Below, piece by piece: positions 6,524-13,731 of a stretch of 64,000 nt of DNA. Where the stretch lies: NCBI GenBank assembly GCA_963730605.1, contig CAVSSM010000009.1, forward strand, positions 96,001-160,000, in the 5' to 3' direction. This stretch comes from an uncultured Chlamydiae bacterium. GTDB lineage: Bacteria > Chlamydiota > Chlamydiia > Chlamydiales > SM23-39. The notes beneath the pieces are model-generated. The model had not been told where the DNA came from. It did not search any database and saw nothing but the letters and a program-made list of their open reading frames with translations. The stretch's first letter is position 1. The number at the start of each line of letters is the position of its first letter. The position numbers were made by a program, and so were the translations under genes.

Positions 6524-9072
6524 GACGTACATACGAGCGTTGTCCCCTTCCGGCGCCAGCGCTCGATGGCTGCCGGCGCAATCGATGGGCAATCTTTTAG
6601 AAAGATTTTTTGTAATGGAAGATCGAGAAGCGCGTCAAGCGTTCGGCTTGACACCCTTGGACATGATGTGAGACAAAGAGAGCGCAGTTCTCGATTTTTG
6701 AGGACAATCAGGCATTCATCAGTAATTTCGGGGCAGTTTTCAAGTGTGATGTACTTCAGATAAATATTTTTAGCCAGCAAATCAAGAAAAGCGCCTGGCT
6801 TCAGCAACATTGCATTTTCAAGAAATATTACAGTAATCGGTGGAAGGGCCTCAGCCAGCCGATTCCAATCGCTTTGGGAAAAATTCTCGCCATTCAGTCC
6901 AAGGTCAGTTAGGCACCCAAGTTTTTGTAGCCAACAAATCGTCGACGATGGATTCAAAGATTTGCACTGCAGCAGGTTGAGCAGCCTGAGGTGAGGCGAG
7001 GGGGCATCAATGGAGGCCGTCAGTTCATCCAATCCGCGCAGGTTGATCTCTTCCAGCTGCGAGCAAGAATGGATCAATCGATTGACCCCCTTATCTGAAA
7101 CAAGGAGGCAGTGAGAAAGATCGACTCGCGAAAGACGAGGCCAAAAAATCGAATAACGATTGATAAATTCATCATTTACAAATACCCGATGTGATAAATT
7201 CAACGTTCTAATTCGAGTTCCCTTTTCTTGTAACTCTGCCAAAAGAGTTTCTGACAGAGATTCTTTCTCGGAAAAGTCGAGATGAAGGGGGGGGTAAGTG
7301 AGGCTATACCGCTCGTGATTGAAAAATCGGTTTTGGTGCGGCGCCTCACCCCAAAAACGATGCGTTTCTGGGGACCCCGGTGGCGGCGTCGGCTTTGACT
7401 CAGATTTTTCATCTTCGCTTCCGAGGCGATTCGCTGCGCTCATCTGCTCTGCACTGCGAAGGTCCACTGGACCTTCTCGTGTTTCCGCAGCCTTGCCTTT
7501 GGCAAGGTCCCTCGCTCCAGCTGAAAAATCTGAGGAGCCAATTCCCGTTTTTTCAATCACTCCAGGTATGCGCCGTGGAGCGAATGATTTTGTTGCATAG
7601 AGAGAGTTCAAGGCTCTGAGTTTGGATAAGATTTTTTCTTCTAACCCTAGCTTTAAGTCAGGTTGAAAGAGGCGCAAATCTTCCTTTTCCTCGGGATCGT
7701 TTTCTAAGTGGTAGAGTTCTTGCTTTCCTGATGTTCGATTGAGGATGCATTTCCAGGGGCCGACTCTTACTGCCGCAAAAGATTCTTGAAAGGGGTGTAG
7801 GAAAAAATGGGGATTGCTTCTCTCTTTCAGCAAAAGGGATTCCCCCATTCCATGGTGGGTGGATCCAATGTTGAGAAGATCGAGCAGCGTCGGGAGCAGA
7901 TCGACTTGCGAGCAAGGCTCTGGACAAGTGAGAGTTTTTTTGAGTTTCCCTTTGGCCAAGAGAAGCAAAGGGACATGAATGTTTTCCTGATAAAGGTGAC
8001 GATTGACCAGAGATTTTTCGCCTCGCTCCCCTAATTCTTGCCCATGGTCTCCGAAGATAAAAATAAGGCTTTTTTCCATAAGGCCTGATTTTTCAAGAGC
8101 CTTGAGCCACTGGCCGAGTGCCCAGTCCGCATATGAGAAGGTTTGGAAGTAGGGATGATCGTCCACTTTCCCTTTCCAGGAATTCGGAAGCAGCCACGGG
8201 TGATGGCAGGTCGCTGTGAGAAGGGTTAAAAAAGCAGGGTTTTTCCGGTTCCCTAGCCAAGTAAGAGCTTTTTTGTAGATCCACTCATCATGCACACCCC
8301 AGCTCATCGATTCCGCATCCGGAAATGTTGTGATCAGGTCGCTTTTGCTAATAATTTCCTGGAAATCGTTCATCTCAAAGAAGCGCTCCCAGGATTGGAA
8401 CGACCCCGGTCCCCCAAGAATCATTCCATTTTCATAACCTTGCTCTCGGAGAATTTGCGGGATTCCCCTTAGAGGGAGGTTTAAGTACGAGCGTAAATAC
8501 GAGGGATGAAACATAGGAAGGATCCCAAATAGAGAGGAGATCATGGCCGATGAAGTCAATAACCCATTCGAGTGGAATTGAGAAAATAAAATTCCCTCTT
8601 TCGACCATTTGTCAAATGATGGCGAAAGGCCCAAAGAGCCTCCCAAGGCCCCTATGTTTTTTGCACGGAAGGATTCTAGGAAAAGAAAAATGACATGAGG
8701 CCGCTCTCCTGCCTCCATCTCTAAGGTAAACCGGCGGTTTTCTTCGGAAGTGGGGCCACGAAAACGAAAAGTTGGGGAGGCTCGTTGAGAGGGAGATCGA
8801 AATCGAAAGGCTCGAACCAGGTCCGATTCCCAGAGAAAAAAGACATTGGAGCGCTCTTCGCTTGAGCAGGTTACGCAGAAAGGAGCAAGGCCGAGCCCAC
8901 TGAGGAAGAAGACCTCTGGAAGGGCAGGAAAGGTCGCTCTTGGGAGAAAGTGCCCTAAGAAGCAACCCAAAATAGAGCACGTAAGAAATAGTCCCATTTT
9001 CCCCCAAGAAGCTGACATCCGAAACGTGGCAAGCTCAAGAACGTGGGAAAAAAAAGCCGGGCGGAGCCGCAC
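6520..9072 (-). CDS. LTA-synthase/sulfatase-family membrane protein fused to C-terminal leucine-rich repeats; carries an 88-aa repeat-derived insertion
   Basis: HVIFLFLESFRA, WGVHD, HHPW, FGDHG, HVPLL, QVDLLPTLL, ELYHL..DPEE; C-terminal LxLxxC..I(T/S)D repeats; frame stays open upstream to ~9306. Confidence 0.8.
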   Translation of the reverse strand: MRLRPAFFSHVLELATFRMSASWGKMGLFLTCSILGCFLGHFLPRATFPALPEVFFLSGLGLAPFCVTCSSEERSNVFFLWESDLVRAFRFRSPSQRASPTFRFRGPTSEENRRFTLEMEAGERPHVIFLFLESFRAKNIGALGGSLGLSPSFDKWSKEGILFSQFHSNGLLTSSAMISSLFGILPMFHPSYLRSYLNLPLRGIPQILREQGYENGMILGGPGSFQSWERFFEMNDFQEIISKSDLITTFPDAESMSWGVHDEWIYKKALTWLGNRKNPAFLTLLTATCHHPWLLPNSWKGKVDDHPYFQTFSYADWALGQWLKALEKSGLMEKSLIFIFGDHGQELGERGEKSLVNRHLYQENIHVPLLLLAKGKLKKTLTCPEPCSQVDLLPTLLDLLNIGSTHHGMGESLLLKERSNPHFFLHPFQESFAAVRVGPWKCILNRTSGKQELYHLENDPEEKEDLRLFQPDLKLGLEEKILSKLRALNSLYATKSFAPRRIPGVIEKTGIGSSDFSAGARDLAKGKAAETREGPVDLRSAEQMSAANRLGSEDEKSESKPTPPPGSPETHRFWGEAPHQNRFFNHERYSLTYPPLHLDFSEKESLSETLLAELQEKGTRIRTLNLSHRVFVNDEFINRYSIFWPRLSRVDLSHCLLVSDKGVNRLIHSCSQLEEINLRGLDELTASIDAPSPHLRLLNLLQCKSLNPSSTICWLQKLGCLTDLGLNGENFSQSDWNRLAEALPPITVIFLENAMLLKPGAFLDLLAKNIYLKYITLENCPEITDECLIVLKNRELRSLCLTSCPRVSSRTLDALLDLPLQKIFLKDCPSIAPAAIERWRRKGTTLVCTS
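7306..7569 (-). mobile_element. 264-bp palindromic MITE-like element inserted in frame (copy A)
   Basis: Terminal IRs ATACC-N4-GTGATTGAAAAA / TTTTTCAATCAC-N4-GGTAT; 14 mismatches to 11227-11490 by manual alignment. Confidence 0.9.

Positions 9073-13731: not shown

Follow-up and report, generated by a model that had tools for sequence, protein, structure and literature searches.

Two in-frame copies of a palindromic element

How did two unrelated genes, one for a sulfatase and the other for the secretin GspD, come to carry nearly the same palindromic segment within their reading frames? Both genes are located in the stretch of chlamydial DNA analysed here (64,000 nucleotides in its full length, referred to as the window), where the segment appears as an inverted repeat (261 nt, 95%). 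Alignment and translation bore out what had been proposed from the letters alone: two 264-nt copies, copy A (7306-7569, minus strand) and copy B (11227-11490, plus strand), differ at 14 positions, contain no stop in the host frame and specify nearly the same 88-residue peptide. We characterize the element as a 262-nt non-autonomous miniature transposon (MITE) accompanied by a duplicated TA. The features of the two insertions are as follows:

6520..9072, minus strand: host gene of copy A, a sulfatase with C-terminal F-box/LRR-like repeats (Pfam PF00884 at residues 125-402; LRR match)
7305..7306: duplicated target TA flanking copy A downstream
7307..7568, minus strand: MITE copy A (element 262 nt; gain including the duplicated TA 264 nt), host residues 502-589
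7319..7600, plus strand: open frame antisense to copy A, a shadow ORF and not regarded as a gene
11167..13731, plus strand: host gene of copy B, gspD, type II secretion secretin (Pfam Secretin and Secretin_N)
11226..11227: left TA of the copy B target duplication, across a codon junction
11228..11489, plus strand: MITE copy B (element 262 nt; gain likewise 264 nt), GspD residues 21-108
11490..11491: right TA of the copy B target duplication

The insert of copy A lies between the sulfatase part and the LRR part of its host, whose C-terminal part matched F-box/LRR proteins; copy B follows the hydrophobic N-terminus of GspD. Both positions had been proposed to be tolerant of insertion. For the host of copy A, the two parts are supported by the Pfam sulfatase match and the F-box/LRR match; the signal peptide preceding copy B is a reading by eye.

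The antisense open frame pointed out at 7319-7600 does exist; however, it is a shadow frame of the element that recurs in most copies and is interrupted by a stop in the gspD copy. With a dicodon-model score of -0.17 against a gene mean of +0.18 (scored on the 315-nt copy), it was rejected as a gene.

Copies in the genome

The window belongs to a genome (G000) assembled to 2.2 Mb in 12 contigs, 83% complete, and proteins homologous to its own bear chlamydial names. A 14-nt end motif, with at most one mismatch, had 39 matches there. Short elements account for 24 of them and an insertion sequence for 14; 1 is unrelated. Upon addition of four diverged ends to the 24 short-element ends, 28 ends were examined; they represented 13 two-ended MITE copies, 10 two-ended copies of a sister family and 5 elements without a left end. 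Net lengths of the MITE copies were 315 (four copies), 264 (three copies), 219, 316, 310, 203, 161 and 112 nt, eight of the 13 being multiples of three; the main size classes add 219, 264 or 315 nt.

The genome-wide count suggested by the original prediction thus gave 13 two-ended copies, six of which are in frame. These six (219-315 nt) are unbroken, in sense orientation and open throughout; their hosts are the sulfatase-LRR protein, GspD, RecD2, a Wzc-like protein, a nucleotide-transporter-like protein and an RlmK-like methyltransferase. The RecD2 and Wzc-like copies are internal (the family match of the latter host is weak); the copies in the nucleotide-transporter-like and RlmK-like genes both come directly after the gene start. 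Among the remaining copies, two extend over stop codons, and another four lie between genes or at their ends. In addition, dnaX and a hypothetical gene each carry an in-frame remnant with a single end.

A seventh copy (L019, G000:C7:123654-123963) landed in frame at the start of rlmM, within the stop codon of the preceding gene (trmH-like/rlmM junction). The original frame is now broken by a stop and a frameshift. An open frame is regained from an alternative TTG start, which overlaps the stop newly acquired by the upstream gene; this arrangement could be a compensatory repair or an assembly error. At another locus (L013:1395-2169) a PTS IIA/HTH gene following a 315-nt copy seems to be split by a frameshift. 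Locus L102, a lone end at a gene's stop with no transposase ORF, was rejected as an IS end.

The sister family shares the right end of the MITE and has another left end; its unit of 197 nt is not a multiple of three. None of its 10 two-ended copies is in frame inside a gene (one precedes the likely start of a frame of 886 codons), against six of the 13 MITE copies (Fisher p = 0.019). One sister copy is in the window:

20662..21012, plus strand: sister-family copy, intergenic; net 351 nt, with duplicated internal modules

A 160-aa ORF over this copy is a shadow. A 533-nt sister copy elsewhere (G000:C1:317548-318080) has five tandem 45-nt modules and one open frame per strand.

One may ask whether the element is removed after transcription or translation, in the manner of an intron or an intein, with the hosts never carrying the peptide. 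The predicted fold does pair both ends, bringing the junctions together, and 88-105 residues would be a large load on core proteins. However, RNA removal would need neither a length of 3n nor sense orientation nor an open frame, and all six intragenic copies have these three properties, while 4/5 of the other long copies have a stop or frameshift. Inteins begin with Cys or Ser and end with His-Asn; the peptide, read by eye, has neither. As Rfam, too, had no match in the window, we regard removal as highly improbable.

Empty sites in orthologues and strains

Matches to gspD start past the insert in all six other genomes of the genus; in the four of these other genomes with a visible N-terminus the insert is absent, and the empty gspD site holds a single TA. 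In 10 of 15 orthologous loci of the six host genes the flanks are joined exactly, with gap 0, the site of copy A in genome G003 among them; the other five loci are too divergent or have a short N-terminal indel. A single TA is present at the junction in 4 of the 10 gap-0 sites. The other six, including the sulfatase site, have no TA there, which we read as substitution between diverged genomes. An orthologue of the RlmK-like host was not found in 5 genomes.

The best 120 RecD2 homologues (712-772 aa) are all without the insert, one of them being 96-97% identical. Contigs from public runs add to this picture. A contig of run X3 runs through the gspD site without the insert; it comes from a strain that differs at several percent of positions. 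In run X4 a contig (7230-7349) spans the copy A junction; X4 may be the source sample and thus not independent. Public-run contigs also have loose ends matching the flanks of other copies, again with the proviso that the runs may be the source sample.

No insert was shared between the host genes and the orthologues compared. The segment, then, is a dispersed mobile repeat, absent in orthologues and recurring in other host genes; in these respects, and in the lack of purifying selection on its peptide, it differs from a conserved protein domain.

The original prediction had seen no clear target duplication; this proved wrong. The MITE inserts precisely at TA and duplicates it: taking the two families together, 16 of their 23 two-ended copies have TA on both sides (8/13 for the MITE, 8/10 for the sister family). 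In copies A and B the duplication is masked by mutation. The left (upstream) TA partner of copy A, at 7569-7570, is now CA, a difference at a third codon position; in copy B the last bases are changed.

Modular structure of the element

The terminal inverted repeats, the nested stem and the two hairpins that had been described from the sequence are all present in the element. In copy B they are placed as follows:

11228..11246, plus strand: left terminal inverted repeat; 14/19 bases as in the IS630 left end
11263..11396, plus strand: core inner stem (arms 11263-11274 and 11385-11396), in common with the 162-nt core of other genomes
11306..11371 (approximate limits), plus strand: optional 66-nt hairpin module, also in the unrelated element at 32642-32893
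11411..11455 (approximate limits), plus strand: optional 45-nt hairpin module, also in the sister family and in tandem copies
11471..11489, minus strand: right terminal inverted repeat; 15/19 bases (18/19 in copy A and the recD2 copy)

Alignment of the size classes resolved a 162-nt core that also occurs in other genomes, together with a loss of 9 nt and three optional hairpins, 66, 45 and 51 nt long. The four length steps are all multiples of three, an outcome with a chance of 1 in 81 if the steps are independent; the size of the 45-nt module was not dictated by the MITE frame, as the sister family has this module too, and it forms tandem arrays. Of the six reading frames, just one runs through the whole element without a stop.

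Other hairpin elements of the window have related parts. At 32642-32893 there is a 252-nt element with different, 28-nt terminal repeats and the same 66-nt module; thus, modules are exchanged between element families. Two more intergenic hairpin elements (33736-33905 and 59358-59536; 170-179 nt) have ends that are related but different.

The predicted fold of copy B is stable (-106.5 kcal/mol, z = -5.15, equal stability in 0 of 200 shuffles). A selected RNA structure received no support from covariation, for which the copies are too alike to make a good test: two-sided change was seen in 1 of 103 predicted base pairs, and the covariation term was unfavourable.

The encoded peptide is hydrophilic, with 66% of disorder-promoting residues. 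The 88-residue form had no match in Pfam, and four element peptides had none in NCBIfam at E up to 10. A search among 1.84 billion representatives returned 6 matches, five visibly derived from the element; the best protein match, P0121, was rejected as an independent homologue, being a truncated copy in G000 itself. An alignment-based model of RecD2 (mean pLDDT 76) shows the insert (residues 271-375) as an unstructured segment between the adjacent beta-strands 264-268 and 374-378; the flanking domains stay at high confidence. Low confidence over the insert itself is to be expected where the alignment has no row for it, and does not count as independent evidence. This model was used in place of a single-sequence fold with a mean pLDDT of 33.

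Selection and random insertion

Does the element seek out coding frames? By rough gene calls, 72-84% of TA sites are in coding DNA. The in-frame share expected from random insertion without purging is 0.14-0.17, which the observed 6/13 rejects (p 0.005-0.012); after purging of disruptive insertions the expected share is 0.33-0.51, which 6/13 fits (p 0.38-1.0). Random insertion at TA together with purging explains the in-frame share; as purging suffices, targeting of coding frames was rejected.

Measured against the family consensus, the six coding copies have 20 private nonsynonymous and 7 private synonymous changes (dN/dS about 1.15); the five other long copies have 18 nonsynonymous and 7 synonymous changes and 2 stops. 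As dN/dS is about 1 whether or not a copy is coding, the peptide evolves neutrally and its amino acids show no sign of selection. Stops or frameshifts were present in 0/6 coding and 4/5 other long copies (p = 0.015, a partly circular comparison).

These values bear on the idea that the peptide or the RNA hairpin has been domesticated, either as a functional tag or as a regulator of translation or mRNA decay. Several copies are situated at starts, stops and gene junctions, the fold is stable, and passages of PMC2229807 and PMC10969869 report an influence of MITE hairpins on mRNA stability in Neisseria and Yersinia. Neutral values of dN/dS in both classes of copies, the near absence of two-sided base-pair changes, an insert never in common with an orthologue and a peptide with neither a family match nor more than six matches in the large search all argue in the opposite direction, and we consider domestication unlikely.

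The host genes are under purifying selection. Against G003 their dS is 0.19-0.30, and dN/dS is 0.14-0.29 in five genes (sulfatase-LRR 0.28, gspD 0.14). Polarised amino-acid changes in four genes numbered 51 in G000 and 71 in the sister genome, with 79 unpolarised. No nonsense change was seen in the six hosts, against about 6 expected if the genes had been dead since insertion, a count that is partly circular because an open frame was used to pick the coding copies.

Could the hosts still be dying pseudogenes, or the copies assembly artefacts? An assembly 83% complete with many IS copies, the disturbed rlmM start and the neighbouring PTS gene that looks frameshifted would be in keeping with such a view. 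The misassembly that the original prediction had named as its own refutation is, however, largely refuted in turn: the hosts evolve under constraint with no excess of amino-acid change on the G000 branch, the copies differ from each other, the X4 contig (possibly from the source sample) covers the copy A junction, and a 315-nt copy is also present in G003, at a different site. We see very little room for either a pseudogene or an artefact.

An IS630 transposase as candidate mobiliser

The genome has 29 DDE_3 matches. One IS630 family is present in 14 copies of 1121 nt, among them G000:C1:117042-118162, with TA flanks, 99.9-100% identity and an intact 352-codon frame; its transposase scores above the NCBIfam IS630 cut-off (NF033545) and matches Pfam DDE_3 and HTH_33. 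Compared over 19 bases, the left end of this IS shares 18 with the right ends of copy A and the recD2 copy, and all 19 with that of a sister copy. Its agreement with the MITE left ends is 14-15/19, with its own right end 13/19 and with another IS630 family 9/19; MITE left end and IS630 right end agree at 12-14/19. An IS630 relative with 71% identity in another family (G123) has the same left end, therefore the IS630 end was not acquired from the MITE in G000.

As the MITE has no transposase and no internal sequence in common with IS630, it is not a plain IS630 deletion derivative. About half of the 14 IS630 copies are in sequence scoring as coding, so the IS630 enzyme does not avoid genes. The IS copies are near-identical, whereas pairwise divergence of the MITE copies is 2.3-10.5% (mean 5.2%, no identical pair); thus, the present IS630 burst is younger than the spread of the MITE, and it may be a re-invasion. 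Judging by the terminal sequences, the resident IS630 is likely to be the mobiliser of the MITE.

Two other IS630-type families of G000 were rejected as mobilisers, their ends being unrelated. At G000:C1:549502-551470 one IS630-type element seems to be inserted in another at a CTAG site. A different transposase gene (53636-55276, Pfam DDE_Tnp_1) is situated in the window at 52417-56410 between two copies of a 246-aa gene, a repeat about 2985 nt apart, the first duplicated stretch of which includes the end of a flavoprotein reductase-like gene.

Alternatively, the same MITE could owe its movement to some other enzyme, perhaps an extinct one; its likeness to IS630 would then reflect shared ancestry only, and the MITE would be immobile now. 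A minimum divergence of 2.3% beside IS copies that are nearly uniform would suit this, as would the imperfect match of the MITE left end to either IS end, and several genomes with the end motif had no IS630 match, although in fragmented assemblies. On the other hand, one end is identical at 18-19 of 19 bases, the TA target is the same and the end is kept on a related IS in the other family; strains about 95-97% identical are without the gspD and recD2 inserts, so that movement was recent on the species scale. We see another enzyme as a serious possibility, though on balance the lesser one.

The reading that we prefer, with a probability of roughly 85%, is that of a non-autonomous IS630/Tc1-type miniature transposon inserted at TA, mobilised in trans by IS630, surviving in frame and carrying a neutral passenger peptide. 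An IS630 transposase of the lineage now in 14 copies would have moved the MITE in trans by cut-and-paste, and insertions would fall on TA sites more or less randomly. Survivors would be those in sense orientation, at a codon junction, and at a protein terminus, linker or surface turn where the gene keeps working; other coding insertions would be purged. The peptide of 73-105 residues, which we infer to be made within the host proteins, would be translated as a probably disordered passenger and drift neutrally, with stops and frameshifts removed.

Related genomes

The end motif was found in 36 of 103 genomes of the family, with 0/103 for the reversed control. In relatives, 80 further regions in nine genomes (part of the listed matches) were considered; together with earlier loci this made 121 examined ends. 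Two-ended copies accounted for 81 of them, mostly of 171 or 162 nt. Clear internal in-frame insertions numbered five among these 81 (the filter may miss cases), and therefore the high in-frame share of G000 is not general. The five, from four other genomes, are in UvrA, YbeY, a glycosyltransferase, an AAA/DUF4143 protein and one unnamed protein; all three sense frames are used. Two of them are:

L178 (G017): 306-nt sibling element, in frame in ybeY
L148 (G007): 171-nt sibling element, in frame in uvrA

A length of 3n was seen in 49 of the 81 sibling copies (binomial p 5e-7), a count not used as a test because 36 of these belong to two master lengths.

One could speculate that the element lineage has been selected for translatability, growing from a 54-codon core to 105 codons via steps of 9, 66, 45 and 51 nt while its open frame was kept throughout, and that the resident IS630 can still move it. 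We find this doubtful. If true, it would be a protein-tagging transposon with a known co-resident enzyme, active across a whole chlamydial family, and could serve as a model in which to study the as yet unexplained spread of coding repeats of the Rickettsia type.

G000 makes the mechanism directly testable: occupied sites can be set beside their exact unoccupied counterparts, the intergenic sister family serves as a control, and the candidate IS630 has ends that match. The tolerance of core proteins (RecD2, GspD, UvrA, YbeY) for 54-105 foreign residues maps insertion-tolerant sites; annotators should be cautious, as such 'domains' are mobile DNA. Separately, long internally repetitive glycine/threonine-rich coding repeats were seen in G000 (contigs C10 and C11, C2:39983-42445 and C4:36746-37792); they look like large surface proteins.

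Comparison with known systems

The element has terminal inverted repeats, a TA duplication, IS-like ends and many short copies without transposase, as expected for a TA-type MITE. With the IS630 family (NCBIfam NF033545) it shares the TA target and a near-identical terminal sequence. TA-flanked MITEs (RUP with IS630-Spn1, Correia/NEMIS and ERIC; PMC2229807) likewise have terminal inverted repeats, TA duplication, no transposase and long stem-loops. IS630-like ends are known from RUP; size classes differing by an internal module are known from Correia elements of 107 and 155 bp, and in-frame fusions are also formed by Correia 107 and ERIC (all PMC2229807). The chlamydial MITE is larger, up to 315 nt in its main classes (two-ended copies span 112-316 nt), and conserved genes hold about half of its copies in frame; RUP, by contrast, is found between genes and is closed by stops in each of its six frames (PMC2229807).

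The closest parallel in behaviour is with the Rickettsia palindromic elements (RPE; Ogata et al. 2000, 2002, as presented in PMC2229807, PMC10969869 and PMC1779305). In these accounts RPEs of 105-150 bp are fused in frame into unrelated conserved genes, an apparently neutral passenger being reported in guanylate kinase. The analogy with RPEs, suggested in the original prediction, holds for in-frame insertion in unrelated genes, and it extends to a palindromic dispersed repeat with an open frame, an intracellular bacterium and an apparently neutral passenger. As for the further proposal of a selfish coding repeat that adds peptide to proteins, the element is indeed in frame and mobile; the peptide is a tolerated passenger, and function is not implied. 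Sequence homology to RPE families was not found: the element peptides had no NCBIfam match, and a search of G000 with an RPE1 model gave none; nor did 14 control genomes, so this search had no positive control.

Several differences are clear. The chlamydial MITE is found in another phylum, is about twice the RPE size (adding 73-105 residues) and is built from exchangeable hairpin modules. Its TA duplication is shown by empty sites, while that of RPE is entered as '?' in Table 1 of PMC2229807. It also has a candidate transposase with matching ends in the same genome; for coding palindromic repeats, transposase-driven movement was without experimental support as of 2007 (PMC2229807).

We found no report of coding MITEs of chlamydiae in a literature search that covered mainly openly available main texts (MITE catalogues in supplements could list this family); the main texts of PMC10969869, PMC5896051 and PMC11602168 do not contain 'chlamyd'. 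The chlamydial MITE is a new family, and it brings a known phenomenon to a new phylum.
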